Of a DNA stretch of 64,000 nt, positions 8,042-34,954 are shown piece after piece. Below the pieces are notes generated by a model. That model was not told the origin of the DNA. It saw only the letters and a program-made list of their open reading frames with translations, and did not search any database. Made by a program: the position numbers and the translations under genes. This stretch comes from Bacteroidota bacterium (GTDB lineage: Bacteria > Bacteroidota > Bacteroidia > AKYH767-A > OLB10): positions 3,071 through 67,070 of the forward strand of contig JANOAX010000059.1 in NCBI GenBank assembly GCA_031411335.1, read 5' to 3'. Each line of letters opens with the position of its first letter. The first letter of the stretch is position 1.

Positions 8042-8051
8042 TCCCATCCAC

Positions 8052-9536
8052 ATGAAAAATAAATTCACTCCTTCCCTCCTATTCATTGTTCTCTTTTTAT
8101 TGATGGCTCCGTCAGCTTGCAAGAAAAGCATGGACGAATTAAATGTAAATCCGAACTCGCCAACGACTACTAATCCTGATTATCTCTTTACTTATTCTTT
8201 AGTGAAGGGAATGAATAGTTACATCACCAATGCCAATGTTCATTATTGGTTGATGATGAATTGGAATATGTACTTTGCCAATTTAGGAGGAGTGGATGCT
8301 GGAAAGGAATACGATAGTAACGATGGCAAAGATGCTTTTTGGACAGAGCATTATGCTCAAGCTTTGATGAATGCGCGCGAAGTACAACGTCTCACAGCTG
8401 GCAACACCTATCTCATCAACAAAAATAGCATCGCTAGAATTTGGCAAGTGTATTTATTTTCACAACTAACAGATTTATTTGGCGACATTCCGTATTCACA
8501 AGCACTACAAGGTGCAACGGGATTAAACTTCACTCCGGCTTATGATCGACAACTAACTATTTATCCTGCGCTTATCAATGAATTAAAACAAGCTACGGCA
8601 GCGATGGATCCAACGCAAGCCTTATTTCCAACGAATGTAGATCCGATTTATCAGGGCAATCTTTCTAAATGGACGAAACTTGCCAATTCCCTTCGTCTTC
8701 GTTTAGCGATGCGTATGAGTGTAGTAGATCCCACCAAAGCACAACAAGAAATTGCAGATTTACAAAATGTCTCGTTCATTTCTACAAACAGTGAGAACGC
8801 CATCTTTCGTTACAATGGAGAAATTCGCAATCCTTTATATGATTTAATACAAAGTGGACAAAGTGGTGGCAGAACGTATCCGAGCAAATTTTTAATTGAC
8901 AAATTAAAATCAACGAACGATCCGCGCATCGGAGTATTTGCACAAGTTACCACAGAATCCATTATCATCGGAATTCCCGATTATGAAGGAGTACCAAATT
9001 TAGTTCCTTCCAACTCATCCATATGGGGGAACTACAATACCGATGCATCCGATGTTTCCAAAATAGGAACTTGGTTTTTAAAACAAGATGCGCCTGGGGT
9101 CTTGATGAGTTTAGCAGAAGTAAACTTCCTTAAAGCCGAAGCTGCATTGAACGGATGGTGGAGCGGTAATGCGCAACAGTTATACGAAGATGGGGTGACG
9201 GCTAGTATTCAATCTTACACTGGTTCGGGCATTACAGCAGGCCAAATAACAAATTACGTTGCCTCACTTCCGCCTGTCAATCAAGAAAACATCATTACGC
9301 AAAAATGGATTTCCTTTACTTTTCAAAACGGGTACGAAGCCTATGCAGAATATCGCCGGACTGGATTTCCAACTTATACTGATTACTCAGGAAATCCCAT
9401 CAACACAAATGTATTTCCTAACCGACTTACCTATCCTCCAACAGAAAGTAACTTAAATTCGGCGAACTATAATGCAGCAATATCCAATCAAGGAGCGGAT
9501 GTGGCAGGGACGAAGGTTTGGTGGGACGGGAATTAA
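8052..9536 (+). CDS. SusD/RagB family nutrient-binding outer membrane lipoprotein
   Basis: The start was moved to the ATG at 8052 (MKNKFTPSLLFIVLFLLMAPSAC, with a lipoprotein Cys). Typical SusD features are present (NPDYLF ... LRLRLAMR ... AEAYAEYRRTGFP). The position is directly after SusC. Confidence 0.85.
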   Translation: MKNKFTPSLLFIVLFLLMAPSACKKSMDELNVNPNSPTTTNPDYLFTYSLVKGMNSYITNANVHYWLMMNWNMYFANLGGVDAGKEYDSNDGKDAFWTEHYAQALMNAREVQRLTAGNTYLINKNSIARIWQVYLFSQLTDLFGDIPYSQALQGATGLNFTPAYDRQLTIYPALINELKQATAAMDPTQALFPTNVDPIYQGNLSKWTKLANSLRLRLAMRMSVVDPTKAQQEIADLQNVSFISTNSENAIFRYNGEIRNPLYDLIQSGQSGGRTYPSKFLIDKLKSTNDPRIGVFAQVTTESIIIGIPDYEGVPNLVPSNSSIWGNYNTDASDVSKIGTWFLKQDAPGVLMSLAEVNFLKAEAALNGWWSGNAQQLYEDGVTASIQSYTGSGITAGQITNYVASLPPVNQENIITQKWISFTFQNGYEAYAEYRRTGFPTYTDYSGNPINTNVFPNRLTYPPTESNLNSANYNAAISNQGADVAGTKVWWDGN

Positions 9537-9665: not shown

Positions 9666-9999
9666 GAAAAACTGGAAAACGATTACGAGTGAAGAGGATG
9701 TTCGAAAAATAATTGATGCTTCTGTACTCAAAACACAAATTATTTTCAAAGATAGTCTGAGTTGCGGCATTAGTGCATATGCAAAAGAAAGGTTAGCAGA
9801 TGGCTCGAGTTTGCTTGCCCAAAAATCCGAATTCAATTATTTGGATTTATTACAATATCGCGCTATATCTAATTTTATATCCAATGAATTCGGCATTACT
9901 CATCAATCCCCACAAATCATTGTCATCAAAGATAAAAAAGTAGTTTATCGCGATTCACATCATTCGATTCAGCCAGAGAAGATACTGAAATATTTATAA
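9664..9999 (+). CDS. ytxJ: YtxJ-like monothiol thioredoxin-fold protein (bacillithiol-system redox protein family)
   Basis: About 111 aa from the ATG at 9664. W..I.SEEDV start, single-Cys motif SCGIS (compare TCPIS in YtxJ), and HQSPQIIVIKDKKVVY near the C-terminus. Confidence 0.65.
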   Translation: MKNWKTITSEEDVRKIIDASVLKTQIIFKDSLSCGISAYAKERLADGSSLLAQKSEFNYLDLLQYRAISNFISNEFGITHQSPQIIVIKDKKVVYRDSHHSIQPEKILKYL

Positions 10000-10001
10000 A
10001 A

Positions 10002-11258
10002 ATGAAACCCATTTTACTACTCATCTTTTTTTTGCTTCAACTTCAGCTTAGTTATTCTCAACTTAATACTAAAATTAATTGGGGAGAGGACATAGCTTTC
10101 CTTGCCAAAGAATTACCAAATAGACATTTTGATTTTTTTACTAAGAAATCAAAAAAAGTATTTGATGCTGGACTTGAAAACATTAAAAAAAATAAAGATT
10201 CGTTATCTGACTTAGCAATTGCGATCAAGTTGCAACAATTCATTGCCAGTTTTGGTGATTCACATACAAATCTCAATTTTTATCAACTTCTGGAGAAAGA
10301 TAAAATACTGCCTGTTAAAGCTAATTGGTTTAAAAATGGGTTTTACATTTTGCACACCACAGCCGAGAACAGCGCAATTTTAGGGAAACAAATAGTAAAC
10401 ATGAATGGAATTCCTTTCGCTACTATTGCAGATAGTTTAAGTACATTGTTTACCATCGATAACCAAGCAATGTTAAAAAACAATATTCCTAAACTATTTA
10501 CTAGCATTCAACTTCTACAGCATTTTGGTTTTGCACAAGGGAATGAAATTGTATTGGGATTAAGAAACAAAAAAGATGAAATTGAAAATCACATCATTCA
10601 TCCAGGAGAATTGACTCGTGAAAACAGAAAGCAAATCATTCCAGATCAAATTCCGCTTTGTTACTTAAATGAAAAATCCTTATTTATTGAGACTTATCAA
10701 GAGAAGGAATCACTTTATTATATTCAATATAATAAATGCTGGAGCAAAGAATTGGAATTACAATATGGAAAAGCAGAAAATGCAGAAAAGATGCCAACTA
10801 TTGCTTCATTTGAAGAAAAGATTTTTCGAACTTTATCTTATGAGTATGTCAAAAAGATAGTGTTTGATATTCGATTTAACGCAGGTGGGAGTTCACCTCA
10901 AGGAACAGCGCTAATAGAAAAATTGGCTGCTCATCTTCAAAAAAATCCAGACATAAAATTATACGTTATTATTGGCCGAAACACTTTTTCATCTGCAATT
11001 TTAAACGCTATGGATTTTAAAAGATTGACCAATGCAATATTTATTGGTGAAGAAACGTCAGGAAAGCCAAATCATTTTGGCGAAGTGCAAAAATTTAAAC
11101 TGCCGAGTTCTGGAATCGCTGTCACTTATTCAACAAAATTTTTTAAAAGAACGGATGATGAATCCAAATCACTGAAGCCAGATGTATTATTTGAAACCAG
11201 TTTTTCAGACTTTGTAAATGGAATTGACCCCGCCTATGAGTGGGTAAAAAAGAAATGA
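10002..11258 (+). CDS. Secreted peptidase S41 family protein (tail-specific protease-like)
   Basis: Signal peptide present. DIRFNAGGSSPQG resembles the DLRxNxGG motif. IIGRNTFSSAILNA contains the candidate nucleophile Ser. IGEETSGKPNHFGE is also present. Confidence 0.6.
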   Translation: MKPILLLIFFLLQLQLSYSQLNTKINWGEDIAFLAKELPNRHFDFFTKKSKKVFDAGLENIKKNKDSLSDLAIAIKLQQFIASFGDSHTNLNFYQLLEKDKILPVKANWFKNGFYILHTTAENSAILGKQIVNMNGIPFATIADSLSTLFTIDNQAMLKNNIPKLFTSIQLLQHFGFAQGNEIVLGLRNKKDEIENHIIHPGELTRENRKQIIPDQIPLCYLNEKSLFIETYQEKESLYYIQYNKCWSKELELQYGKAENAEKMPTIASFEEKIFRTLSYEYVKKIVFDIRFNAGGSSPQGTALIEKLAAHLQKNPDIKLYVIIGRNTFSSAILNAMDFKRLTNAIFIGEETSGKPNHFGEVQKFKLPSSGIAVTYSTKFFKRTDDESKSLKPDVLFETSFSDFVNGIDPAYEWVKKK

Positions 11259-18483: not shown

Positions 18484-19551
18484 ATGAACGTAAATACAAA
18501 AATCTCATTTACACAAAATACAAACAGTACTTTATCTGAAGTTAATTTCAATGAACTAGATTTTGGAAAACACATGTCGGATCATATGCTCCTTGCTCGC
18601 TATAAAAACGGGGCATGGCAGGAACCCAGCATTGTGCCTTTTGGTCCCATTCCCATGATGCCTACCATATTGGCATTGCATTATGGACAAAGTGTTTTTG
18701 AAGGAATGAAAGCTTTCAAAATGGCAGATGGAAACATTTCAATCTTTCGAATTAAAAAACATTTCGACCGATTACAACGTACTCTGGCAAGGATGTGCAT
18801 GCCACCACTTTCTTTTGAATTATTTGAAGAAAGTATTAAAGCAATAGTTGAAGTTGATAAAGGCTGGGTACCTGAACAAGACGGCAGTTCACTTTATATT
18901 CGTCCGCTCATCTATGCAACAGAAGAAAAATTTGGTGTAAAAATATCAGAAGAGTATTTGATGATCATCATGACGGGACCTGTTCCTCCTTTTTATCCAA
19001 AGCCATTACGTGTAAAGATTGAAGATCGATATGGGCGTGCTTCAATTGGCGGAACAGGTGCAGCAAAATGTGCTGGAAATTATGGAGGCGCATTCTTTGC
19101 GACTCAACTTGCTAAAGAAAGTGGATTTGATCAAGTTCTTTGGACCGACCTTAGCGAAGATTTAAATATAGAAGAGTCGGGTACCATGAATGTTTTCTTT
19201 TTAATAGATGGTAAACTTATCACCCCTCCACTATCCGAAACTATTTTAGAAGGTGTCACACGCGACTCTGTCATCATTATGGCTCGAGAGATGGGCATCA
19301 CAGTAGAAGAAAGAAAAATCAGTGCTAAAGAAATTCTAGCAGCTCACGAAAATGGAATTCTACAAGAAGCTTTTGGAGCGGGTACGGCTGCAGTAACAGC
19401 ACCCATCTGTGCCATTGGTCTCAAAGAAAAAACGATTGATCTTCCTCCTTACGACAGCAATAGTGTTTGCATGAAGTTGCAACAATTGTTAACCGCGATG
19501 CGCAATGGAGCTCTTCCGGATAAGTTTGGATGGAATACTGTGGTGGGATAA
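18484..19551 (+). CDS. ilvE: Branched-chain amino acid aminotransferase (class IV PLP enzyme)
   Basis: 355 aa. LHYGQSVFEGMKAF, SLYIRPL, AKCAGNYGG, EESGTMNVFF and ILEGVTRDSV are all typical of the IlvE type II subfamily. Confidence 0.9.
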   Translation: MNVNTKISFTQNTNSTLSEVNFNELDFGKHMSDHMLLARYKNGAWQEPSIVPFGPIPMMPTILALHYGQSVFEGMKAFKMADGNISIFRIKKHFDRLQRTLARMCMPPLSFELFEESIKAIVEVDKGWVPEQDGSSLYIRPLIYATEEKFGVKISEEYLMIIMTGPVPPFYPKPLRVKIEDRYGRASIGGTGAAKCAGNYGGAFFATQLAKESGFDQVLWTDLSEDLNIEESGTMNVFFLIDGKLITPPLSETILEGVTRDSVIIMAREMGITVEERKISAKEILAAHENGILQEAFGAGTAAVTAPICAIGLKEKTIDLPPYDSNSVCMKLQQLLTAMRNGALPDKFGWNTVVG

Positions 19552-19557
19552 AAAATC

Positions 19558-22305
19558 TCAATTCGAAAAATCGTAAAACACGCTCTTTCCATCAAACACG
19601 ATTGGATTTTTACTCCATGTTTCGATTCCATTTCGAGATTTAACAACAATAAAATAGGTTCCACTACTAGGATAAAAAGGAATTATAGCTAAACCATTTC
19701 GATACAATACTACTTGACTGGATTGTACTAAAGTATATGGATTAGTACCTGCATGCAATTCTACATTGATGGAATCACTTGAATTGGGATCAGGATGTAT
19801 TCCATTATTAAAAAGCGTTGGGGTCATGAATCCTCCTCCTTGATAATACCCCTCTACTAATATTTTTAATTGAAAACCACCCATACCGCATCCTTCATCA
19901 AAAATATTGTTGCAATTGTCATCGATGCTATTAAAACAATTTTCATTGGTATTGGGATGAACATAATTCAAAGTGTCATTACAATCTTTGGCATTAGAAA
20001 CATATCCTATGGGTTGAAAACAATATAACGAATCAACGCTATCATTTCCGAATCCATCTCCATCAGCATCCGCATACCAATTTACTTTTGGATTATTATT
20101 GACTGTAATAACTACTGGCGCACTATTCACCGTGCATGCATTGCTGCTCACTATACTTACTGAATAGGATCCCGCATTCTTTACATAAATACTTTGAGAA
20201 GTTGATCCTGTACTCCACAAATAGGAAGCATAAGCATCTGGAAAACGAATATCAGAAATAGTGATAGTTGCTGCGTTACCTAGGTTGTTGGTTGTGTTCA
20301 TTCGAAAACAAAAATTCTGACCCTTTAAAACAGGAATGCTAGCAATTCCATTTTGTGTGATGGGTCCACCAGAACCATATGTAAAATTAGGTAGCGAAGA
20401 AGACGTTCCATTGATGTTGATTTCAGGGAAATCATGTTGAGGTCCATCCACACTCGTGTACGACCAATTAAACTCCAATGCTCCATCTCCATTCATGGCA
20501 TGACAAAAATCGATATAAGATGACGGAGAGCCACCCCCGTTAGTATTGCTTGAGGTTATCGAAATAGAACTTGGCACATTGTTGCTGTTTACACTTCCAT
20601 TATCATTTGCACTGTGTATGATGTTCCAGTTGTCGATATCGAACAATTCAGAGAAACCAAAAATTGGATTCGTTTTTACACCAGCATCTAACTTTAATGA
20701 ATCTCCATTACAAATAGTCACCGCACCGTTTGGTATCACATTTACTATATTTATCGATACAGGAGGACTCGTAGCCCAACAACCTAAATAATCTTCTACA
20801 GAAACAGAATAAGTGCCTGCATTATTAACTGTTATAGTAGAGGCAGTGTTTCCCGAAGGCGACCATAAATAAGAAAATGCTTCTACTCGTTGCGGTGTAT
20901 TTACAAAAGATCCATTCGCTAAATTATTACTCGCATTCAATACCGTGCTCCCGTTTGTTTCATTGAATTTAAAATAGCTTAACAAGCCGGCTTCATTTGT
21001 ATTCACTGTATTTACCATTCCTGACCGAATATCGAATCCTGATCGAGGAACATTCCAAACACGCACTTCATCAATATCTCCATCAAAAAAATTAAGTGCT
21101 TCGGAACTCGAATAATTGGGTCGACCAATTTTAAATGTACCGATATTAGCACTAGCACTTGCTGTGTAATTCATCGAAACGGTACGATCAAATCCATCCA
21201 CATAAATTTTACCTATGCCAGGAGGAATTGAATAATCCCACACAACCGCAATATGATGCCAATTCCCATCATCAACTTCTACAGAGCTAGATATGCTTCC
21301 ATTATCAAATCCAGAAAATGCAGGTTGACCAATATCATTAATAAAAAATACGCGTTCACCTGCTTCCCAACTCGTATTGGAATTATTACTCACAATAATT
21401 CCTTCTGAACCTGAAGTCGTTTTAATCCATGCTTCCAAGGTAAAGCTTGCATTATTTAAGTTCGTAACGTTTGTATTTAGATTGATCCATTGATTCGTTC
21501 CGTTCATTGAAATGGCATTATTAAATGCAGTTGTAGATAATTCAACAGGTTCAAACGGACAGTTGATCAAAGATGAATTCGTGACAATATTTACTGAACG
21601 ACTACTTTCTATCACTTGTGTTGCACACGTTAACGTATCGATGAAATTCGCTAACACCGTCACCACATAATTTCCTGCTTTCAATCCAGTAACTTGAGGA
21701 GTAGTTGCCCCGCAACTCCACTGATAAGTATATTGCGGTGTTGAACCATGCACGACGACAGGTTGCGCTAATAAATTTTTTATAATTAATCCATCGCTCT
21801 GACTTATCATCACGGCTGGTATTGTAACGCCCAAGATATTATTTCCTCCTAAAACAAAAGCAGCTCCTGGTGTATTGTTCACAATGATTACACCTAAAGC
21901 TCCTGCATTTTGCGCATTCAACACTTTCGATTCAAAAGAACAAACGCCTCTGTCGATCACTGCGATTTTTCCTGCGAAAGTACTTGGAGCATATGCGGAA
22001 CATCCTAAATCAGGATTCGATACATATTTTAAATTTCCTGAAAGCGCGGTGATGTAAATATCTGCACCAAACAATGCGGGGGCATAAATAAAATTGTAAT
22101 TCGTAGTGCTTGAAATCGACAACAGACGCTGATTTTCCATGATGGAAACCGCCACAGCTCCTCCACTATTACCATTGCAAGAAAACCCACCCGAACAATT
22201 TAAGGAATAATTAATTTGACCCTGTGTTGAATAATTGAAAAATATAATCATCATTCCAATAATCAAATAGCATTTTATTTTTTGAAGCATTACGTTCATA
22301 TTCAT
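19558..22305 (-). CDS. Secreted multidomain protein: PA domain, LamG domain, Ig-like modules, Cys-rich metal-binding-type motif, unassigned C-terminal module
   Basis: PA domain: GKIAVIDRGVCSFESKVLNAQNAGALGVIIVNN. LamG: DGDIDEVRVWNVPRSGFDI. DADGDGFGN ... CNDT ... ENCFNSIDDNCNNIFDEGC is a MopE-type motif. The last 107 aa are 67% identical to the C-terminus of the next gene. No PNP...type A or NAFSPNGD type B signature is present. Confidence 0.7.
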   Translation of the reverse strand: MNMNVMLQKIKCYLIIGMMIIFFNYSTQGQINYSLNCSGGFSCNGNSGGAVAVSIMENQRLLSISSTTNYNFIYAPALFGADIYITALSGNLKYVSNPDLGCSAYAPSTFAGKIAVIDRGVCSFESKVLNAQNAGALGVIIVNNTPGAAFVLGGNNILGVTIPAVMISQSDGLIIKNLLAQPVVVHGSTPQYTYQWSCGATTPQVTGLKAGNYVVTVLANFIDTLTCATQVIESSRSVNIVTNSSLINCPFEPVELSTTAFNNAISMNGTNQWINLNTNVTNLNNASFTLEAWIKTTSGSEGIIVSNNSNTSWEAGERVFFINDIGQPAFSGFDNGSISSSVEVDDGNWHHIAVVWDYSIPPGIGKIYVDGFDRTVSMNYTASASANIGTFKIGRPNYSSSEALNFFDGDIDEVRVWNVPRSGFDIRSGMVNTVNTNEAGLLSYFKFNETNGSTVLNASNNLANGSFVNTPQRVEAFSYLWSPSGNTASTITVNNAGTYSVSVEDYLGCWATSPPVSINIVNVIPNGAVTICNGDSLKLDAGVKTNPIFGFSELFDIDNWNIIHSANDNGSVNSNNVPSSISITSSNTNGGGSPSSYIDFCHAMNGDGALEFNWSYTSVDGPQHDFPEININGTSSSLPNFTYGSGGPITQNGIASIPVLKGQNFCFRMNTTNNLGNAATITISDIRFPDAYASYLWSTGSTSQSIYVKNAGSYSVSIVSSNACTVNSAPVVITVNNNPKVNWYADADGDGFGNDSVDSLYCFQPIGYVSNAKDCNDTLNYVHPNTNENCFNSIDDNCNNIFDEGCGMGGFQLKILVEGYYQGGGFMTPTLFNNGIHPDPNSSDSINVELHAGTNPYTLVQSSQVVLYRNGLAIIPFYPSSGTYFIVVKSRNGIETWSKNPIVFDGKSVFYDFSN

Positions 22306-22796
22306 TCCAACTGTTAACTGATACCATTTATAAGTATTTAATAGTCCAAATAAACATAATTATATTTTTAACAAGCTTAGCACTAACACTGACTTGTACT
22401 GAATACATATTACATAAATTAGGACAATTTAGTTCTTCGGATATCTGTTAAATAAATTTTAGTTTTAAATTAAGATTCTAGTTCTATTTTACTTGTTACT
22501 TTCTTTTACGTGAAAAGAAAGTAACCAAAGAAAGCACGCCACCCAACACCAACCCATTTTTGCGGTTTCTACTTTCTACTTTCTTTCGCAACCACTGAAC
22601 ATTCTTTTGTGCTATCTCTTTACTTCATCGGTACAGCAAAAATCGGTTCGCGCTGTTGCGTGGACGACCTCCGCACCGTTCAGAATGATATTACTGTTAC
22701 TTAAAATAAATTGCTTGAATCATGCTTCCATTTTTGTTTAAATAATCGGACTACACACTATGTATAAACGATATGACAGTATACGATTTTTCAAAA

Positions 22797-25700
22797 TTAA
22801 GGTTTCGAAAAATCATAGAAGACAGATGGCCCGCTGAAAGAGACTGGATTTTTACTCCATATTTCTATTCCATTTCTATGTTTTACAACAATATAATAAG
22901 AGCCCACGGCAGGATAGTATGGGATAGAAGCAAATCCATTTCTGTAAAGTAATACTTGTTGATTATGCACCAAAGCATAGGGACTTGTAGCAGTACGTAA
23001 TTCAACGAATACCGAATCACTTGAATTCGGATCAGGATGCATTCCATTATCAAATAATGTGCTGATCATAAATCCACCCGATTGATATAATCCTTCAATC
23101 AACATCTTTAAATGAAAGGCACCACTTCCACAACCCTCATCTATAATATTATTACAATTATCATCAATGGTATTCACACAAAATTCGGTAGCATTGGGAT
23201 TAACTGTAGCTATGGAATCATTACAATCCTTATTATTTGAAACATATCCGCTAAGTGAAATACAAGCAGCAGAATCAATAGTAAAATCTCCAAAACCATC
23301 TCCATCAAAATCTTTAAAATAAATAGGTGGCAAAATACAAGATCCATTATTTTGAGTTGCCAACGAACTATAATTACAAGCCAACGGATTCATGCATCCC
23401 GGAACATCAAAAATTCCATCATTAGGTGTATTAATAAAATAGGTTTCTGCTTTTACAAAAACATCTGTTGCTACTTCCTGTGCAATTTTACGTCCGGGAA
23501 TATCATCAAAGGGAGGATGAATTCCGCCCCAGATACGAGACAAAGAACTTTCATCGGCTGCATCCTGATACGTGGCCCATTGGAGATCGATGTCAGTGCT
23601 TGGACCATTTTCAAATAACAAGTAAGCGTTTTGTGCACAATGAAACACTCCCATTCCACCCGGAAAATATTTAGTACCGGTAAAATCAGTGAGTAATTCT
23701 GCAGCGGCTCTTGAGTAAGTGGAGTGACCAGAAAGATAACCTGGGAAGGGTGGAGAAGCAAACGAAGCGCGTTGATACGGATGCCATTTTTCGGCTAGTG
23801 TCCAACCAACACCTGCTACATCGGTATCTACATTATTGATGGCATCATGCCCTTTCCAAGCTTTCAACTTAATTTTTCCTACATTGGTAGAACCATTTGC
23901 TAATGGATCACCGGGGTGTATCACTTCAATGTATCCGGGCACAAGCGGCAATCCTGCAGGATGGAAATTTGAATCGAGCGGATTGGAACTTTGTCCCAAA
24001 TCGGCCATAGCACGAATAGCTGAAATAGGACGAGAGGTATCATACCAGCCTTTAATTCCCCAAATAGAAATAGCGACGTCATGCATCGCACCACCTAATG
24101 CAAAATATCCTTTCACGCTCCATTCCAAATCATCTAATGGTGTACCGTTGCCCTTATATTGTTTTGTTTCTAGTGGATGGTCGGATACGTAATTAAAAAT
24201 ACTATACCAGTGTCCGGGTGGTGTTTCCGAATTTGGACCATCAGCCCAGAATTCTGAAAGCACACGAGCAAAATCGCCGCGCTTCACTAAATTAGTAGCA
24301 TAGGGCAATCCGGTCACCGGATTCAAAGTATGTCCTACGTTAGTTGTACCTCCATTCAAAAAATTATAAAAATTCGGATAGTCGGCAACGTTAGCAGGTA
24401 ACACATTTCTGTTACCTTGCGTTTTTGGAGAAATATCCCACATCGTAGTATCGGCAGGATCTAAATGAGAAGACCATACTGCAACCATCGCATGTCCCCA
24501 TTGAAATTGTGAAGAGGTTCCACTTCCATCCATTTGCAAAATGGGTGGGGCGCCGGGATCATGATACACTTTATAATTAAAACCGTTTCGTTGGTTCACG
24601 GTTAAATCGGCTGGTGACAAAGCAAACGGAACCACCTGACCCCACTCCGGACTCAATGCTGGCGGAGTGGCGCCAGGAATAGCATTTCCACTTTGATCAA
24701 TAAAAAGATCCAGTGTAAGCGGTTGCCAACGATTCAGATTTGTCATGTTTGGATTTCCTGGAAGATCAACGATCATGGGTGGATTTACTGGTGTATAACT
24801 CGTATTCGCATAACTTCCTTGCTCGTTGGATCCATCCTGCAAGCCAAAAGCGATATACTTTGCTGCGATATAATTTCCGAGTGCGCGTGCGTCACCGTTC
24901 GTATAATTTGTATCGGTAAAGTTTTTATCGTAACCTAATGAATCCATCTCCACGTTATAAGCCGTTATCAACAATGCAGCTTGCGGTGAATTAGTAAAAC
25001 GATGTTTCAGTAAACGATAAGAAGCATAGGAGATGGCTTTACGACGATCTTGTGCAATATTGGAAGAAGTGGGAATACCCGTGAATGCGCAAGTGAAAGT
25101 GCCCACCGTTTTTCCAAGCAAGAATTCAATAGAATTATTATCATAGGCTGCCCATGCATCCCACATGGCAGACGAATGATGAAATAAATTTCGTGCGTGA
25201 ACAGTTGGTCGTGCAAAATCTCGTCTGATAGATGCCAACAATAATTCGTTCCATTGCCTTGCAATATTATCGTTCAAATCAGCAGTAGGATAAGTCACAT
25301 TGGGTGCGCAATTAGGATCTGGGTTGGTAGGACAAGGATCGCAGCCATCGGCTAATCCATCTAGATCGTAATCGGCATTTATGGGAGCGAGCTCACAACT
25401 GTCATTCATAAATACGCCATAGCCATTACAAAAGCCTGTCACAAAATCTTGCAATCCATCATTATTGATATCCATCCATGTAAAGTCATATACATTTTTT
25501 GCCCATGGTAACGTTGTTGTTCCGTACACATTCACCATCACACCGTTATCATTGCGATAAATAGCCATACGCCGACCGCTTGCGCAAGGAGGAATATCCA
25601 CATCCACGTCGGCTATACCAACATCCATATCCCCATCCAAATCCAAATCGGCCACATGAACATTTCCGCCAAATCCATTGGTTGTACTAAAATTTAAATT

Positions 25701-26750
25701 CGTTTTTACTACAGTTAAACTCGAATCGGGAATAATCGTAGTTACCCGTAAAATATAATCGCTACCATCATCCACAACAAAAAAATCTTTTTTACCATCC
25801 AAATTAAAATCGGCTATGTCGAACATATAGGGAGAACTTGTAGGAACCAGGTTTTGCCATTTGGTGAATGTTCCGGTTCCATTATTAAAAAGAACAATCA
25901 CACCACGCGCATTCCACGGAGCAACGTTATAAAGCGTAGAATTTTTTATGATATCGTTATCGCCGTCATTATCGATATCTACTATTTGACATGCTGTACC
26001 AAATGCAGAGTTTCGCAAAGTACCTAAACGTGCTGTACTTTCATTGGTAAAATATCCGGATCCATTATTAATTAAAAGATAATCTTTAGCGATGCCGCCA
26101 GATCCATTCGCACGATAATTCACGAAATAAATATCCAATGCACCATCGCCGGTAACATCACCGGCCCACACGGCACAAAAGCGAACTGGATCTTCTGAAA
26201 GGAACGGAAGTCGCAAACTTGTTTCTTCTATAAATCCTTTCCAATTTCCTAATGAATCATTTCCTTCGTTTCGGAAATATTGTGGTTGCTGCAAAAATGT
26301 ATTTGCGATAATCACATCCTTCCAATTATCCCCGTCAAAATCACCTACGAATACATCGCGTGCAAAACTTATTGAATCGATGAATTGAGGAGCGTGTAAC
26401 AACGTTTGATCTGTCAGTACTCCATTCACATTCATTAATAAAAGCGTTGATTTTCCGGGTTGCGTAGGACTAGAAAACGGCTGCTTTCGGACCACGATCA
26501 GATCTTGTTTGCCGTCATTATTAAAATCTGCTGACCACATGTCCTTTTCTTCCGGATCGCTATTCGCTACAGAGGAAACCACCAAGCGCGTAGATGTAGC
26601 ATCTAGCCAATTGAACCATTGAGCTGAACAAAAATTTTGGGTAGATGAAAGAAATGAAAAAACAAAAATCAGTGTTAGCGAAATCAGTTGAAAAGAGGAA
26701 CACTTGGTACTTGTTACATTATTCATTTGAGCAATGTAGAATTTAAGCAT
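22797..26750 (-). CDS. Secreted fusion protein: FG-GAP/VCBS repeats, thrombospondin-type Asp motif, PAP2/vanadium-haloperoxidase-like core, Cys-rich motif, unassigned C-terminal module
   Basis: At least seven FG-GAP-like units (DFNNDGKQDLIVV, GDFDGDNWKDVIIAN, GDVTGDGALDIYFVN, VDIDNDGDNDII, ADFNLDGKKDFFVV, ADLDLDGDMDVGIAD, MDINNDGLQDFV). PAP2 tripartite motif: K-x6-RP (24026-24052), SGH (23724-23732), SR-x5-H-x3-D (from 23540 downward on the minus strand). DFDGDGFGD ... DDNCNNIIDEGC is followed by the shared C-terminal module. Confidence 0.7.
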   Translation of the reverse strand: MLKFYIAQMNNVTSTKCSSFQLISLTLIFVFSFLSSTQNFCSAQWFNWLDATSTRLVVSSVANSDPEEKDMWSADFNNDGKQDLIVVRKQPFSSPTQPGKSTLLLMNVNGVLTDQTLLHAPQFIDSISFARDVFVGDFDGDNWKDVIIANTFLQQPQYFRNEGNDSLGNWKGFIEETSLRLPFLSEDPVRFCAVWAGDVTGDGALDIYFVNYRANGSGGIAKDYLLINNGSGYFTNESTARLGTLRNSAFGTACQIVDIDNDGDNDIIKNSTLYNVAPWNARGVIVLFNNGTGTFTKWQNLVPTSSPYMFDIADFNLDGKKDFFVVDDGSDYILRVTTIIPDSSLTVVKTNLNFSTTNGFGGNVHVADLDLDGDMDVGIADVDVDIPPCASGRRMAIYRNDNGVMVNVYGTTTLPWAKNVYDFTWMDINNDGLQDFVTGFCNGYGVFMNDSCELAPINADYDLDGLADGCDPCPTNPDPNCAPNVTYPTADLNDNIARQWNELLLASIRRDFARPTVHARNLFHHSSAMWDAWAAYDNNSIEFLLGKTVGTFTCAFTGIPTSSNIAQDRRKAISYASYRLLKHRFTNSPQAALLITAYNVEMDSLGYDKNFTDTNYTNGDARALGNYIAAKYIAFGLQDGSNEQGSYANTSYTPVNPPMIVDLPGNPNMTNLNRWQPLTLDLFIDQSGNAIPGATPPALSPEWGQVVPFALSPADLTVNQRNGFNYKVYHDPGAPPILQMDGSGTSSQFQWGHAMVAVWSSHLDPADTTMWDISPKTQGNRNVLPANVADYPNFYNFLNGGTTNVGHTLNPVTGLPYATNLVKRGDFARVLSEFWADGPNSETPPGHWYSIFNYVSDHPLETKQYKGNGTPLDDLEWSVKGYFALGGAMHDVAISIWGIKGWYDTSRPISAIRAMADLGQSSNPLDSNFHPAGLPLVPGYIEVIHPGDPLANGSTNVGKIKLKAWKGHDAINNVDTDVAGVGWTLAEKWHPYQRASFASPPFPGYLSGHSTYSRAAAELLTDFTGTKYFPGGMGVFHCAQNAYLLFENGPSTDIDLQWATYQDAADESSLSRIWGGIHPPFDDIPGRKIAQEVATDVFVKAETYFINTPNDGIFDVPGCMNPLACNYSSLATQNNGSCILPPIYFKDFDGDGFGDFTIDSAACISLSGYVSNNKDCNDSIATVNPNATEFCVNTIDDNCNNIIDEGCGSGAFHLKMLIEGLYQSGGFMISTLFDNGMHPDPNSSDSVFVELRTATSPYALVHNQQVLLYRNGFASIPYYPAVGSYYIVVKHRNGIEIWSKNPVSFSGPSVFYDFSKP

Positions 26751-26884
26751 ATGAAGATTAATTAGAGACTCGGTCTATTTTCAAATTTATGAATATATCT
26801 GGAATCTGCAATACTTTATATCCCTTGTACAATACGTTTCACCAACAAAAAAGAATGAAAATCCTTATAAAACGCAGAAAAATA

Positions 26885-27298
26885 CTAGTACACCTTCATT
26901 TTTCGCTTTGATAGGTATCGCATCAGTTGCCACCCTAACACCGATCCGATACAATTGGCAATGAAATCAACATAATCGCAGGTTCGGTTAGAAAGAACAT
27001 GTCCTTGATATAATTCAATTAACCCACCATAAATTATCCCGCCAATTAAGGGAATACTAAATTGATTTCTCGACCATCTATTTCCAGAAGGCATTTTACT
27101 AAATCCATTAGTGAAAAGGATAACGAAGACCCCATAAAAAATAAAGTGCGCTATCTTATCGGGAGCTAATAAATCGAAAAGATCAGGAATCTCAATGGCA
27201 GGTGGTGTAATTGTGCTCAGGATCAGAATCAACAAAGCCCAGCTTATGCCGGGCCAGTTGTGATGAAAGAATCTAATACTAGTAGTATCAACCACCAA
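26885..27298 (-). CDS. VanZ family membrane protein
   Basis: 137 aa with four hydrophobic segments. The [10 protein letters not shown] motif is typical of VanZ-like proteins. It overlaps gcvH by 11 bp, which suggests an operon. Confidence 0.6.
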
Positions 27299-27668
27299 TC
27301 AAAGACTTATAAGTGTCGGCACTTAGCAAATGGGAGAGTTGAGAAATATCTGAAATTTTTACTTTAACCATCCATCCTTCGTTGTAAGGGTCTTTATTTA
27401 CTAATTCAGGTGCGCCTTCTAGTTTTGAATTCAGTTCAAGTACCTCACCAGTAACAGGCATAAACAAATCAGAAACTGTTTTAACCGCTTCTACGGTTCC
27501 GAAAACTTCATCCTTATCAACGGTTTCTCCCACCGACTCAATTTCGATATAAACGATATCACCCAATTCGCTTTGTGCGAAATCAGTAATGCCGATGGTG
27601 GCCACATCACCCTCCACGCGAATCCACTCGTGGTCTTTGGTATATTTTAGTTCTGCTGGAATATTCAT
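27288..27668 (-). CDS. gcvH: Glycine cleavage system protein H
   Basis: 126 aa. [32 protein letters not shown] and the lipoyl-lysine motif [10 protein letters not shown]. Confidence 0.95.
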
Positions 27669-27703
27669 AATACTATTTTGTACAAAAATAATATTATTTT
27701 CGA

Positions 27704-30700
27704 TTACTGGGATAGAGAAAAGCGAACTTCAATACCCGTCAACACATTTGAGGTTGGAAATGACGTTGAAATGACTGGTGTGTTTATGGTTTGTTCATAA
27801 AATAAACGGACATTCAATCGCTCATTTACTGTATAATCTGCAGCTCCTTTTATAGAATAAACATTTAATCCAGCGGTAGGCTGATTAACACCTTCCAGCA
27901 ATCGACGAATCACAGTAATATTACGTCGTGCTGAAAAATCGGCTGTGAGGTTCAAACTATTTCCAGCAACTTTCTTTTTTCCGCCAAGTCCAAAAGGCAA
28001 ACGGAACTTGGGCATGCGATAACCAAATCCTAAAACAATTTCATTTCCCTTTACTTCGGTGATTTGAACGCCAGCATAAGTCAATGATACATTTCGGTCG
28101 CGGCGGAACTCAGCACGTGTTTGCATATTATTTTTCCACGTAACATCCACTCCTATCAATGGACCAAATTGTTCGCTCATCGAAACCTGAGCAAGCTCAC
28201 GCTTGGGTACAAAATTACCAGAGATATCTTTTACAGAAGGGAATTCAGAATCTACATAACTTGCATTTCGCTGGAAAGAGTTTACATTATAGGTGGCGCG
28301 ATAACTATGCGTAATGTTTACCGATGTGAATATTTTTTTCAATAAGGGTAATTTTCCTAACCCATCGTAAGTGATTCTCCAGTTCGGCAAAGGTATACGA
28401 GGAAAAACGTTGAGGTCAATTCCGGTAGGAGACTTGCCTGTATAGGCTGATAAGAAAGCCAAAGCCAACACTTCTTGTTGTGTACCGCTGTATCCATCAT
28501 TGTAAACAACACCGAATGTATCTGCTGGAGCTAGTCCTATTGAGTTAGGGTTTTGAGATGCTAATCGCTCAGAAAGTATTTTCCTGTTTTGATTGAACTT
28601 ATCAAAAGTTGCACTTTCATAAGTTTTCGAATCGTCTTTCACAAAAGCGGTTCCCCATCCAATAACGGAGATACTGAAATTTCCAGTTTCGGTGACACCT
28701 TGCGATTCAAAACCAGTTCCATTATATCTAAAGAATTCAGAATTGTTTCTGCTGAATTGTCGTGTTGCTGTTAATTCGATTTTCATTCCTTCAAAGGGTT
28801 CGATGGAAGCACGACCCGAAAAATTAGATGAATACGTTCTTGTTAATGGATTGTTTAGAGTAGAATCCGCTGTGATCCACCCGCCACGTACTGCACGCTC
28901 ACGAATATCTCTTTGTGATCCCACCGTGAATCCGATTCCGGGAGAGTTATTATTAAGATCTTGTCCGAACACATCCGAATAATTTACATAACCTGGCAAT
29001 GATGTTCCATTGGTTTCACTGTAGGTAAATCCAACAGTTTTGAGTCCCATAATCATTCTAGCTACAAATCGAACAGCGTCAGGTGTTGTACGTGGTTTCT
29101 TTTCAGCAGGAATTGGAATTTTAGGTTTCAAACTGTCTGAAGGTGTCGTAGCTGGATCAGGAGGCTTTACTTTTGGTTTCGGCGGAGTCTTTGGCTTTGG
29201 AGAATTCATCTTCTTCAACCAAGGAACTTTATTATAAAGCGTGGTCATGGTAAAGTTACCATTGAGCTGCTTTGTATTTGAATTCTGAATGGTATTACCT
29301 GTTCGCGGATCGGTGGTGAAGAGCCCCTCTGTGTTTCGTAAGTATTGCCCTGCTGTCCAACTGTAGTTAAACCCGTATCGAGCATTCAACGAAATCCAAT
29401 TTGTAAATGGGAACTTATTCAACGGCACTTGATAACTTACATTACCTGTTTGCTGATAGTTTTTATTTCTTCCAAGCAAGAAATTTTTTCCAAAAATATT
29501 GCTACGAATCGAATCCCGATCATCCTTCGAATCAATTCTTCCTTCGGGCTCATCGACTACCGAAAAGTTATTTGCGTTGAAATCAATTTTAATACTTCTA
29601 GTAAGATCTAATTTGAAATCATACAATCGACGCATCTCAAAATTTTTGTTGAAGAAAGTATCGCGAATGATGTCGTTGAAACCCGTATTATTTCTAAATA
29701 ATTTTTCACCATACATCCTCGTCACATCAGCTCGGAAATTCAAGCTGGTAGGAATCAAATTGAGATTAATATCTTTAATAGGCTTCAGATACTTTGATTT
29801 CATGATGTTGGCCTTTTCAAAAGGAGCGATGTACTTCGGTGTAGTATTGTAATTATAACCAACCGCACCTCGATGTGTTTTGACTACATCGTACTCTATA
29901 TTTATATCACGGTGAAATACTTCATCATACCCATAGGTAAAATTGAAATTTTCCACATCGTACACACGTGCCTTTGCACCCGCATTACGATTCTTTTTTA
30001 CATTGGTAAAGTTGATCCCTTTCGTTTGCGTATAATCTTGTGAACGCTTTTTGATTTCTCTCTTCTCACTTTTACTATCCGCTTCACCCAATGACTTCGT
30101 AAATAATACGTCTTGATCTAAAGGATCATAAACTGGATTACGAACTACGGTACCGTAATTCACATACATTGGGATGTCTAAGTTTGCTTTTTGAGGAAGA
30201 AATTTTCCAAGATAAATCGAAGAGGTGACATTGAAAGTAGTTTCTGAATTCACGGGACGCTCGCTTACTTTTTGATCCAATGGACCAAAGTTCGCCGACT
30301 TATGTTGTCCAGCTACAGTAACATTTCCTATATCTGCTAATTTAGCATTGACGCGACCGTTAGCTGCCCATCCTCCTTTCTTACTGAAGTCGGTAAGCCG
30401 AAGTTCGTTTACCCAAACCTCTCCGCATTTCTTCTGACCGTCGTCACTTCCGGGAAGGAGCGGATCCAACTTTGGATTTCGTATTCCAATCATAATAGAA
30501 CGAATAGAACTGAGCGATGGATTTCCTCGAACACTAAATGTTCGATTAGTGCCTGATTCTCGTTCGGAATACAGACTTGTTATATTTAATGCGCCACCTG
30601 AATTATCAACCGCTTTATTTCGCCGCAACTTCATGTCCACAAACTTCTCGAGTTCTAATTCAATGTTATTTGCTGTGGGCCAAATAGCATCGGGAGATGT

Positions 30701-33700
30701 GGTTCCCCATGCTGTCACACTTAATGGTACTTCGTATTCATAATAGTTTTCGCTAAAGTCATTACCCATACGGATAAACACATTCATGTCGCCGCTTTTC
30801 AAAGCATCAGGATCACCAGAACTCTCTGCATGAATAAACATTTTTATTTTTTCATACAATCGTAAATCCAATTCCAAATTCTTAAATGCTCCTCTTGCAT
30901 CACCATCTTCCAAATCACAAACTTTCAATGATAAACTTTGCTCATTCAATCTTTGAAGAACGGTTGAACCAATATTGATCTCACGTAAAATTCCTGGAGG
31001 AATCGCATAATTGATGGGAGTACGTTTTCCATTCTCTTCAATGTTCACCACAGAAATATCAAAGGTGGCATTGTTTGGATCCGTTCCAATCACATCACCT
31101 ATTGCACGTAAATCGTAATTGTATTTTCTCCACTCTCCTCTCAAAAGTTCTAATCGGGCAAAACGCAATGTCATCGGCTCATCAAAAGTAGTCATGAACA
31201 TACGGATAAAAGAAATAGTGTTGAATCCTTCGATATCACCAATGCGGGTAATATTTGGATTCGTTCCATTGATTTCACGGATCGGAATTTTAAACTGATA
31301 CCAAGTTACCTGATCGGATGTTCCATTCGGTAAGTTTACAGTTCGTGTGATTTTATCAACGATAAAATTTTGCCCTACTTCCATTTCACCTGGACGCAAC
31401 GACACGCGGTATTGATAATATTGCTCGCTACTTTCTTGATTAAAATCTTTATTTACGTCAGCTACATCAGGAATTGTTGTTGCCGCAGTAGGATAACTCT
31501 CCGGCGATTGCGCATCCGTTGGCGAATTACCCTCAGGATTACTAAATCTTTTGTAACGATCTAAAATTCCTAAGCCTTGGTTATCGTAATCCGTTCCGCG
31601 GTAGTAATGGTAGTTATCGGAAGATGGATCTATTGCTGCTTCTGCATACGCTTGAGCATTTACATTGGCTTGTAAGTCGTTCAAGTACGTTTGAAAGAAA
31701 GAAGTTTCTAAATTATTTCTGAGACCATCAAACCCTACGTCTTGAAATTGACGCGCATCGGGACTATTATCAAAAGCGTAAATAATGGGCGGTTGTGTTT
31801 TCGGTGTAAATCCCCAAATGGTATTACTTGCAACACTGGTATCGCCATCAATAGGCAATCCATTTTCATATTCCAGTTTTCCATCTTTCAATACATCCTC
31901 TGAAATATTTCCCAAGTTGAAATATAAATCTCCTCCACCTTGATTAACATTTTGTGTATTGCTATTAAAAGGATCCATCATCCAAAACTGAATGAATTCA
32001 ATATTGGCTACATCAAAATCAGTAGTTTCAATTCTACGCATGATACCGCCCCAACGTGAACCTGGATTATTTAATTTACCTGCAGAGTTAACACCTGCGC
32101 TCAGTGCACTTGGTACTACATCATAATTATAAGGTCCGCGCTCTTCTGGAAAATAACTGATGTTGAAGACAGGAAGTACAACAGTTTGCCCTTGCTGTGC
32201 TTCACGATTTGGAAAAATTTCTTTCTCTGGAACTTGACGTACTAAGTGATTGGAAATGGCATTGTCATCGATATTTGGAGGTGTTACTCCTGAAAGATTA
32301 CGATAAAATAATGGATCGATGATATACCATGAAAATTTTGCGCGATTCTTTCCGTACTCTAAACTAACGCTATCTGCTTCTGGTAATAATCTCGTTGGTG
32401 CCGAAGCAAGAATCCAAGAACCCACATTTCGCAAATCAATGGTACTTTGACTTCCTTCAAAATCGTCGATATAAGCAGTACCATTTTTTCCGATGGCTTT
32501 ATTATTTCCTGGAACTAAGTTTGCAAATTCTCCAGCTACCGTAATCGTAGAAACTTCTTTGGTTGATATTCCAGGAAGCTTATCAATCATTCGAGTTAAC
32601 CAACGTGATTCAGTTCGCCAAGTTCCATCCACACCCCAAATAGTATTTGCAATGGGCTCATCACCAATATTTACTTTTTGTGTGATGGGACGTTCATTCA
32701 ATCGTAAAATAGTACCTCCTAAAACAAGATCCTTATTCACGGTATAATCAAATCGAGAACCGAATAACGTTTTGGATTGAATACTAAAAAGTGAATTACT
32801 CTCTAAAGAAATATTGATTGCCGTTCCTGAATTTAAAATACTTTGATTGATGATTTTTACACGACCTAAATTATAATCCACTGTATAATCTACGTTCTCC
32901 GTTAACGGAGCACCACCGGCAGTCACCTTTACCGATCCTTGTGGAATGTTGATAGCATTCAGTGGAATGTCAGATCCATATTTACTGATGTAACTTCCTT
33001 TTAAACTAAACTTATTTTTGGAAGCTTGTTGAATCGCGAAAATCCGCGTTGAATCATACAATGCTTCGTACACATACGGTGCTGCTGCAGCTGAATCATT
33101 AAACTTGCTTTCCAAAAACGATCCAAAAGGTTCGCGAACCGGGAAAATAATTCGACCGTTATTACTATTGATCGTAACGCCTTCAATAAAATCGAATTCT
33201 CCATCGGGACGCGGATCATTGTTACTATTTAATTTATCTAAATTGAAAAGTCGATTTAACGGCTTGGCGTAAACGTTAGTTTGTGCAGAAGATGTTGGAA
33301 TGTAGTTTAGTCGATTACCAATGGTATCTACATAATACAATACATCCATTTTAAAATCTTTTCTATCCAACTGAAATCCGCCCAACGCATAAACGTTCTT
33401 CATCATCAAATCCCAGGTTGGTAACTTTGTATTGTTTACACGACCTTTCAAAAGTTTCATGAATAATACTTTCGGTGGTTCAATTCCCGTGTTGGTCAAA
33501 TCTCCTACACGATATACTTTACCACCGATGGTGTATTCGTAAGCCACTGCTAAAACTTCATTCCCATTGAGCGCTTGGTTTAATGAGATATAACCTAAAC
33601 GTGGATTGAAAGTATACTCTGTAGTAGCTAATCGACGAGCGTTTTGAACTACTTCATAGTCACGAGATGGACTTAATGCCGTTATACCCGCAATGGAATT

Positions 33701-34954
33701 TTGCACCAAAGTAACATCTCTCAGGTCTGGATTCTGGAGGAATTGATCATACAAACTATTAGCTGAGTCTTGTGGAAACGGGACAGTGACATTCCATGCA
33801 TTTGTGATATATCCTGTGGGCTCAAAATAATTTCGCTCTCCCAAATCCATCGCCGCCAAAACGGTACGCGTATTATCAGTACTATTATTCCGATTAGTCA
33901 CCCATACTTCGATACGAGTAATGGATGCTAATGAATTGATGAAAGGAAGATCGGCCAATGAAACATCATACTGATCTTTGAAATATTGTCCAATGAAATA
34001 ATGTTTGTTTACCTCATACTGATCGCAGGGAATATCAAACTTCGTGGTAGTTGCTCCGCCTTTCACTTCAATGTTGGAAGCTTGTCCGCGCTGTTGTGAA
34101 AGCAATGTGGTTACCATCAGTCGACCAAACTTCAACTGTGTTTTCAATCCGAACAAACTCTGGCTACCTTGAATCAATTGAGAATTGAGCGGTAAACTTA
34201 CGTTACCTGCTTCTATCTTTTGAATAATCTCATCTTCATAACCTGTGTACTCCAATTTCATTTGATTCTCAAAATCGAAACTGGCTTGCGTATTATAGTT
34301 GGTGGTAATCTTCAATTTCTCTCCGATATTACCAATCACATTCATTTGAATCTGCTCACGGAAATCGAAAGTGGTAATTCGACGTTGGCGCTCTGGTAAG
34401 GTTGGATTATCGTAACGCGAAATATTTAATCCGAAAGCCAGTGATGCCGATCCTTGCGGACGAATGTCGATGGTGTTACCACCAAAAATTCGGTTGAACG
34501 CTTCGCCACCTACGTAAATACGAGGAGAACCACTTTTACGTGCGGCCGCATTCTCTGCGTTTGCTTTTTGTTTCCAATAGTTTTTTGTGCTTTTTTCAAA
34601 CTCCGACTCTTTAAACTCTTCAAAGGTCATGTAGCTTGGACTTCTAAAAAAATTACTCCCAATATTTTCGTTGATATCGTACTGACGCTCTTCCGGATTA
34701 TATTCAATCGTTGTTTGAATATTGCTTGGGTTGCCCATATAAAGTGGACTACTGGGTGCATTGCTGTTATACGGATCGGCATAACGATCATCAAAAGGAT
34801 AAGGCAAATGCACAGCGGCAGTATCCGAGTCACCTGCAGCAAAGGGCATGGAATCGAATGGACTAAAAACGATTTCTGATCCAGATGCCCATACCAAAGA
34901 TATTAGCAACGTGAAGCAAAAAATGATAAGTGAGTACGAACGGATCTGCTTCAA
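27704..34954 (-). CDS. sprA: T9SS outer-membrane translocon SprA/Sov
   Basis: 2416 aa with a signal peptide. Size, beta-rich composition and the conserved ruvA-sprA-gcvH neighbourhood match Flavobacterium-type SprA. All internal antisense ORFs are treated as spurious. Confidence 0.85.

Follow-up and report, generated by a model that had tools for sequence, protein, structure and literature searches.

A 64,000-nucleotide stretch of the genome of a Bacteroidota bacterium (GenBank assembly GCA_031411335.1, contig JANOAX010000059.1, positions 3,071 to 67,070; below, the window) raises the question of how two neighbouring secreted proteins, of 915 and 1317 residues, are directed to their final location. 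Both have a predicted type I signal peptide, and neither carries a canonical sorting domain of the type IX secretion system. As noted in an earlier interpretation of the same DNA (the sequence-only reading), the two proteins end in a common cassette of about 176 residues. We find that this cassette is a mosaic of an ordinary MopE-type metal-binding motif (PF11617) and a β-sandwich domain of about 105 residues, and that the second part, here called the module, is the true recurring unit. The module is an undescribed and widespread domain for which present domain databases have no entry. In type IX-positive lineages, it mostly takes the C-terminal "address" slot of multidomain proteins that are Sec-exported and are not lipoproteins. 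There, the module and the type A sorting domain are mutually exclusive, the former replacing the latter by position, and among the secreted proteins of Bacteroidota the module is best grouped with the C-terminal address domains. With respect to function, sequence and modelling lead us to favour, as a plausible rather than a probable interpretation, a retained docking or anchor domain that would set the final location of the protein.

Two unrelated proteins with a common C-terminal cassette

The genes for the 915-residue protein (19558..22305) and the 1317-residue protein (22797..26750) are located on the minus strand, as are all domains described in this and the following section, and the open reading frames, checked against their translations and Pfam matches, are present as first reported. 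A BLASTP comparison of the two proteins returns one significant segment, residues 756–915 against 1157–1316, in which 104 of 160 residues (65%) are identical in an ungapped alignment (E = 3e-65); every other segment is noise, and nothing else is common to the two proteins. Ungapped comparison over the whole cassette (residues 740–915) gives 63% identity, and over the last 109 residues of both proteins 73/109 (67%), in line with the earlier hand count of 72/107 (67%). Across these 109 residues the DNA is 68% identical, and the same codon is used at 40 of the 73 identical residues, which indicates that the sharing of the cassette is old and has been kept by selection.

The claim that the N-terminal architectures are unrelated is borne out by Pfam. 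In the 915-residue protein, the signal peptide is followed by a PA domain (residues 91–174, 21784..22035; PF02225, E = 8.7e-21), a Laminin_G_3 domain (residues 268–426, 21028..21504; PF13385, E = 7.5e-22), an Ig-like region, the MopE motif, and the terminal module. The 1317-residue protein consists of a signal peptide, six FG-GAP_3 repeats, DUF6851 (residues 527–677, 24720..25172; PF21167, E = 2.1e-10), the second helical-bundle domain of VCPO, VCPO_2nd (residues 1002–1078, 23517..23747; PF22778, E = 1.4e-05), the MopE motif, and the terminal module. The PF22778 score of 25.7 bits is just under the cut-off of 27, and close homologues carry PF22778 in their precomputed Pfam column. The predicted signal peptides, as read from the translations, span residues 1–29 in the 915-residue protein (22219..22305, with cleavage between TQG and Q) and residues 1–43 in the 1317-residue protein (26622..26750, with cleavage between CSA and Q). 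Neither sequence appears to contain a lipobox; the N-terminus of the 915-residue protein is the same in its orthologue P0003, and Met9 may be the alternative, true start of the 1317-residue protein.

Two separable parts make up the cassette

The first half of the cassette contains the segment D-x-DGDGFG and a Cys-rich, MopE-type metal-binding motif, and matches PF11617 in both proteins. In the 1317-residue protein (residues 1142–1207, 23130..23327; PF11617 match 23136–23228), the score is 34.4 bits (E = 2.7e-08), above the cut-off of 27, and in the 915-residue protein (residues 740–806, 19888..20088; PF11617 match 19894–19986) it is 27.2 bits when the cassette is scanned by itself and 23.2 bits when the entire protein is scanned. 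The second half is the module, which in the 915-residue protein comprises residues 807–915 (19561..19887; E = 3.6e-42 with the family profile) and in the 1317-residue protein residues 1208–1317 (22800..23129; E = 5.9e-41). Each of the two modules is closed by a genuine stop codon (19558–19560 and 22797–22799, respectively).

Among relatives, the two halves occur apart. With a narrow MopE hidden Markov model (HMM), the motif immediately precedes the module in at least 20 of the 100 members of the terminal type with sufficient sequence upstream, a lower bound since the model misses some divergent copies, and in none of 117 members in which the module is linked to a dockerin. Other domains that precede the module are Ig-like, IPT/TIG or SprB-type repeats. 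Conversely, the same MopE motif commonly precedes type A sorting domains, as in dozens of homologues of the 1317-residue passenger. The cassette is therefore not a single unit of 176 residues, and the statement that it is undescribed holds for one half only: the first is a known Pfam motif, and the second is without a Pfam or NCBIfam family.

A widespread family in uncultured Bacteroidota

A word-indexed search with one module gave two orthologue fragments, as if the module were a rare feature, a picture that was overturned by an exhaustive HMMER search. Run with a profile of four sequences, it returned 3,658 cluster representatives with E ≤ 1e-3, of which 1,229 reach E ≤ 1e-10. A second search, with a 44-sequence profile, gave 321 proteins. 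Those named by their source are all annotated as "hypothetical protein", the named organisms are all Bacteroidetes, Bacteroidota or Bacteroidales metagenome bins, and the precomputed Pfam column never covers the module in any of the 321. In the literature on dockerins, cohesins and type IX secretion in Bacteroidota we found no description of the module.

A scan of GTDB with one genome per species identified at least 573 module loci, and counts of genomic context below refer to the best 80 of these. All 80 are metagenome-assembled and most are assigned to Bacteroidota, with Chitinophagaceae, Flavobacteriales, Crocinitomicaceae, Bacteroidia and one Ignavibacterium among the sources. Five loci (L004, L017, L039, L059, and L079) are from bins labelled Candidatus Saccharibacteria or Bifidobacterium. 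These labels are probably wrong, because the GC content is 36–44% and two of the loci encode cargo of Bacteroidota type: L004 encodes GEVED and CHU_C-associated Ig domains, and L059 a homologue of a protein with DUF7619 and a type A sorting domain. Cargo genes with type A domains are present in 31 of the 80 loci, and the same genomes thus also use the canonical signal. The expectation that the module is limited to type IX-positive lineages agrees with these data, the named sources being Bacteroidota and the single Ignavibacterium.

Position of the module and its association with dockerins

Of the 359 sequences pooled for a count of position, 181 end in the module, 164 continue from it into a type I dockerin, and the remaining 14 are fragments or rare other arrangements, with something else behind the module in 11 members; a type A sorting domain accompanies it in none. 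Tails behind the module have a bimodal length distribution among the best 150 representatives, with 0–5 residues in 69 and 71–95 in 74. The longer tails, of about 82 residues, are dockerins and not sorting domains, as 27 of 30 match Dockerin_1 (PF00404). Stop-to-stop reading frames in the 80 loci give a similar division, with a stop within five codons of the module in 43 cases and a dockerin followed by a stop in 52. The two forms also differ in sequence: the residue after the ETWS motif is Lys in 94 of 112 terminal copies, and Ala or Ser in 95 of 132 dockerin-linked copies. Terminal (ETWSK) and dockerin-linked (ETWS[A/S]) modules are hence distinct subfamilies, and the window copies belong to the terminal type.

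We considered whether the terminal position could result from assembly truncation or from a dockerin that had been overlooked. Six-frame HMM scans detect no dockerin in the window, and in these scans and in translation the 491-base-pair spacer behind the 1317-residue gene (22306..22796), which has stops in every frame, contains no remnant of a dockerin or sorting domain. Together with the stops in 43 independent genomic reading frames, this rules out both possibilities, and the Lys versus Ala/Ser marker of the subfamilies also argues against them.

The module is C-terminal in the window and in the 181 terminal members, but not in the 164 that continue into a dockerin, nor in a few N-terminal copies. 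In P0004, P0028 and P0088, the module comes directly after the signal peptide, and P0004 is made up of two module–dockerin units in a row. P0044 and P0088 have a non-terminal module and end in Fib_succ_major (PF09603).

A large group of proteins of about 184 residues comprises a type I signal peptide, a conserved segment of about 50 residues, and the module; in a few of them a dockerin follows. The segment has the consensus SLSP.V...GGY...GG.SLSWT.GE.....L..G...LTQG.QQPY. Members include those encoded at L056:5689-6324 and 9897-10514, L009:5758-6324 and L037:5740-6564, as well as P0153, P0155, P0157–P0161 and others. The genes are located directly downstream of genes for proteins of 900–1270 residues in L056 (twice), L009 and L037, and P0157 is solitary; one of these larger neighbours carries a Peptidase_S74 chaperone domain. 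The small proteins could be adaptor subunits.

The module occupies the slot of the type A sorting domain

Residues 450–1110 of the 1317-residue protein, which include DUF6851 and VCPO_2nd, were used as a query for homologues of the passenger, and thousands were found at about 60% identity. Among the best 120, about 87 carry PF18962, many in the order passenger, MopE, PF18962. Our own HMMs assign type A domains to 84 of these 120, in 40 of which the domain comes after MopE, and a module with a dockerin to two. The closest relatives of this passenger consequently bear a type A domain at the exact position held by the module in the window, and since most passenger homologues carry a type A domain there, the module can be said to occupy the slot of the sorting tag.

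The slot has a further alternative occupant. About 17 close, FG-GAP-bearing passenger homologues end in a Cys-bracketed, dockerin-like tail alone. The tail is about 55 residues long, with the consensus ..CPADLDNDGF.VIGD.L.FLGDFGC..C.ADINGDG.V.VQDLL.GIL..FG.PCP, and its bearers (P0265, P0269, P0271–P0280, P0282, and P0301) have neither the module nor a type A domain.

Proteins whose N-terminal parts are unrelated have the module in common at their C-terminus, in line with the sequence-only reading. In P0022, it terminates a thermolysin-type (M4) protease with a propeptide and a P-domain, and a protein with GEVED and "CHU_C-associated Ig" domains ends in module and dockerin. A signal-peptide-like hydrophobic N-terminus, typically with Ala before and Gln after the cleavage site, is present in 66 of 83 full-length members tested, and the lipobox pattern in 5 of the 66.

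Comparison with type IX sorting domains

The most direct alternative, which was also the principal idea of the sequence-only reading, is that the module is a new type IX export signal that is recognised by SprA or by a PorV/PorP-like shuttle, and is both necessary and sufficient for passage through the outer membrane. This is the main rival to a retained docking or anchor domain. In its terminal form, the module does share several features with type IX sorting domains of types A, B and C, which are C-terminal β-sandwiches of about 70–110 residues on Sec-exported multidomain non-lipoproteins of Bacteroidota, and are likewise joined to unrelated passengers. In homologues of the same passenger, including those where it directly follows MopE, the type A slot is the position of the module. 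Confinement to type IX-positive lineages, the C-terminal location of a β-sandwich of about 105 residues, the replacement of type A domains behind MopE, the lack of any type A domain in the 359 members, and their non-lipoprotein character can all be understood if the module is an export signal. The same holds for the cargo, which must leave the cell (M4 protease with propeptide, SprB repeats, GEVED, and CHU_C-associated Ig domains), and for the gene order beside sprA, which is kept in a related locus, L081. An export signal would also best explain the absence of a canonical sorting domain and the route out of the cell.

At the level of sequence, the module belongs with neither the type A nor the type B domains, as first proposed. 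Both whole proteins are without a match at E ≤ 1 to PF18962, PF13585, TIGR04183 or TIGR04131, and the isolated cassette likewise to PF18962 and TIGR04183; in scans of the whole proteins, the terminal 107 or so residues match nothing in Pfam or NCBIfam at this threshold. Nor does any of 44 diverse modules match PF18962, PF13585 or TIGR04131, and TIGR04183 gives a sub-threshold match in one of the 44 (E = 0.067, 13.2 bits versus a cut-off of 23). The same kind of scan detects the type B protein of the window itself (36090–37544) with E = 7.8e-16. In the remainder of the window there are eight type A proteins and this one type B protein, nine in all and not ten as previously counted. Alignment of the family profile to the eight type A domains with hhalign gives a probability of 1.8%, and the aligned piece is a G-x-Y-hydrophobic hairpin alone. 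In the module, this hairpin reads GTYFIVVK (window 19630–19704, module residues 62–90), and both hhalign and TIGR04183 align it with the type A motif, far below significance; the likeness is probably a common feature of β-sandwiches and not a sign of homology. Membership of type A or B is thus ruled out by Pfam and NCBIfam, for the window proteins and the 44 members, and by hhalign. There is also no consistent Pfam family across the 44 members, the best being Filamin in 4 of 44 (E ≥ 0.03), and a comparison of PDB sequences with the family profile gives noise only (best E = 0.47).

If the module is a sorting signal, it cannot be the third class, as was suggested, but at best the fourth, since a ChiA-type "type C" sorting domain (cl41395) has already been described (PMC10202324). 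The existence of the ChiA type shows, in turn, that signals unrelated in sequence can occur (PMC10202324), which is a point in favour of an export signal. Scans with NCBIfam, where the presence of a type C model in the library is uncertain, gave the marginal TIGR04183 match and no further model of a type IX sorting domain.

Several observations are difficult to reconcile with an export signal. Apart from the lack of detectable homology to the A and B models, half of the family continues into a dockerin, which is the actual C-terminal domain in the 164 members, and some copies are N-terminal or duplicated, both of them differences from type IX sorting domains. The module further differs from these by its strongly conserved polar motif HRN..ETWS and by the absence of an adjacent PorP/SprF-like gene: none flanks the window genes, neighbours in the 80 loci include no conserved partner family, and there is no dedicated shuttle gene near module genes. 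The proteins of about 184 residues are almost module alone, and the dockerin-like tail that by itself ends the closest FG-GAP passenger homologues makes it unlikely that all occupants of the slot are type IX signals. The tie of the module to type IX secretion derives from sequence context, and a new export signal appears unlikely to us. The two halves of the original proposal therefore fare differently, in that the better one is a module for surface attachment that cargo genes have exchanged, and a classical cleaved export signal fits worse.

Predicted structure and possible function as a docking domain

AlphaFold2, run with the 44-sequence alignment, predicts a confident all-β sandwich with a predicted local distance difference test score of 92.7 and a predicted template modelling (TM) score of 0.83. 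The predicted fold class is that of a prealbumin- or Ig-like sandwich. Searches of the PDB with Foldseek gave weak matches (best E = 7.7e-3, TM ≤ 0.53) to Ole e 1-type and transthyretin-like proteins, CueP, DUF3823 proteins, and the X-module of type II X-dockerin dyads. No specific fold relative emerged with either of two models, and known sorting-domain structures are absent among the 50 matches listed for each. Invariant or nearly invariant positions in the family are Gly13, Asp38, Gly65, Tyr78, Tyr79, Arg85, Asn86, Thr90, Trp91, Ser92, Pro95, and Phe107, of which the polar and aromatic ones look like a binding patch in the alignment.

These features would also be expected of an ordinary ligand-binding domain, for example one that binds carbohydrate substrates, with an incidental C-terminal position. 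The predicted sandwich fold, the conserved aromatic residues, the existence of stand-alone and N-terminal copies, and weak fold matches to a putative carbohydrate-binding protein (4iyk), CBM41 (2j71) and the DUF3823 proteins are all compatible with this. In cellulosomal enzymes, moreover, binding modules often adjoin dockerins. The position of the module is less easily accounted for, as the passenger domains LamG, PKD, MopE, DUF5122, DUF7619 and GEVED in these genomes routinely precede a type A domain of the same protein, and the module does so in none of the 359 members. In addition, its partner domains are mostly not carbohydrate-active enzymes and no Pfam family of binding modules is matched. 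We regard an incidental ligand-binding role as distinctly unlikely.

A parallel may be found in the X-module–dockerin dyads, such as the X-DocII of Clostridium thermocellum CipA (PDB codes 2B59 and 5G5D). As in these dyads, a sandwich of about 105 residues directly precedes a C-terminal calcium-binding dockerin in the 164 dockerin-linked relatives, and module and dockerin can likewise be duplicated as a pair, as in P0004. The fold match to the X-module is weak, with TM scores of about 0.5 (0.45–0.51 for 2b59_B, 5g5d_B and 4u3s_B, E = 0.05–0.07), and the modelled resemblance fits the dockerin association but is non-specific. There are also clear differences. The window proteins and the whole ETWSK subfamily are without a dockerin, the dockerin of the module family matches the type I model, unlike that of the type II X-dockerin dyads, and no cohesin partner is seen among the neighbours scanned (12-kilobase flanks). 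Furthermore, the dyads are found in Firmicutes, and the module in Gram-negative Bacteroidota.

As a docking or anchor domain, the module would stay on the mature protein and may fix it at the cell surface through a protein or glycan partner. The proposed contact is the invariant polar and aromatic patch formed by Arg85, Asn86, Thr90, Trp91, Ser92, Tyr78 and Tyr79. By analogy, the arrangement could be compared with that of an X-module–dockerin dyad, or with a type B sorting domain bound to a PorP-like partner. A domain that is retained, rather than an export signal that is cleaved, is suggested by the dockerin-coupled subfamily, the duplicated module and dockerin, the N-terminal copies, and the proteins of about 184 residues.

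Against a retained docking or anchor domain, it must be considered that an anchor role alone leaves the crossing of the outer membrane without a known sorting signal unexplained, and that the window and its orthologues lack a dockerin. Among the neighbours scanned in the 12-kilobase flanks of the 80 loci, there is no conserved gene, cohesin or PorP/SprF-like gene. The Foldseek matches are weak, and the likeness to the X-module is no better than that to many other prealbumin- or Ig-like sandwiches, among them the Ole e 1, transthyretin-like and CueP folds. In the sets examined no member comes from a cultured, studied organism, and the whole case is built on sequence and predicted structure.

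A further alternative is that both proteins are paralogues without an export tag that are kept in the periplasm, where the module would bind, for example, peptidoglycan or the outer membrane at its inner face. A type I signal peptide combined with no known outer-membrane export signal is what such proteins would have, and the phosphatase- or haloperoxidase-like passenger could in principle act in the periplasm. The architectures are nevertheless of extracellular type (FG-GAP/VCBS, PA, SprB repeats, M4 protease with propeptide), with sizes of up to 3,486 residues, and the family is associated with dockerins, which to our knowledge are extracellular assembly modules in every studied case. Retention in the periplasm is accordingly very improbable.

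The prediction of secretomes in Bacteroidota depends on the recognition of type A, B or C sorting domains. Because no Pfam or NCBIfam model covers the at least 3,658 clusters, module proteins of environmental and wastewater Bacteroidota are invisible to it. As an export or anchoring signal, the module would add to the type IX or surface-display signals now known, and would provide a handle on how proteins without a recognised tag arrive at the surface; as a mere binding domain, it would nevertheless be a new family that merits a database entry. The tight pairing with dockerins raises the possibility of cohesin–dockerin-type assemblies in Bacteroidota. It is doubtful, and suggested by sequence patterns, that the module is a fourth, sequence-unrelated type IX targeting class in thousands of uncultured Bacteroidota proteins and that, at the same time, the dockerin subfamily reveals a cohesin–dockerin-like surface assembly in these Gram-negative bacteria. 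Should this be true, both were missed because no cultured model organism carries them.

Genomic context and history of the gene pair

The two genes are preceded on the minus strand by sprA, which encodes the type IX translocon (27704..34954; SprA_N, E = 7.5e-200), gcvH (27288–27668; GCV_H) and a vanZ-like gene (26885–27298; VanZ), in the order sprA, gcvH, vanZ-like gene, 1317-residue gene, 915-residue gene. The proximity to sprA that had been pointed out, about 1–5 kilobases, amounts to 0.95 kilobases for the start of the 1317-residue gene and 5.4 kilobases for that of the 915-residue gene. The order is kept in L081, a Joint Genome Institute metagenome contig (positions 1–12748, compared with window 19558–34954), in which the modules are about 71% identical to those of the window. 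In L081, sprA proximity is synteny within a clade, and not functional evidence. Downstream of the pair, this contig encodes a protein of more than 3,600 residues with Gly_rich_2, LamG and MopE, in place of the aminotransferase.

A tandem pair in which each gene ends in the cassette is also present in L001, L002 and L081. Cassette identity is 72–84% among the copies of the 915-residue type, 76–93% among those of the 1317-residue type, and 61–65% between types. Because the copies group by orthology, the cassette must have been shared before the genomes diverged and has not been homogenised since. A recent gene conversion between the neighbours is ruled out by this grouping in three other genomes and by the many synonymous differences. 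Orthologues differ slightly more in the module than in the passenger, with identities of 83 versus 90%, 92 versus 99%, 66 versus 71%, and 78 versus 84%.

L001 (JANOPQ010000025.1) represents nearly the same organism as the window, with 99% identity in the 1317-residue passenger and 90% in the 915-residue passenger. It shares with L002 (JADJPB010000014.1) two further homologous reading frames, of about 360 and 574 residues on the opposite strand, the sizes of which suggest counterparts of the aminotransferase IV gene and the gene for DUF5122 and a type A domain in the window. Across the 80 loci, all-against-all clustering of neighbours, Pfam annotation of the top clusters, and look-ups of four contigs revealed no conserved partner gene. 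A scan of positions 19400–27800 for sigma-70 promoters and terminators gave no excess over shuffled sequence, with a promoter model that may not suit the organism. Elsewhere, the window encodes a SusC/SusD-like pair (4868–9536), a LytS-type histidine kinase with its downstream neighbour at 40944–41672 (together 39892–41672) and a second TonB-dependent receptor (41810–44242), which are typical Bacteroidota content and unrelated to the module.

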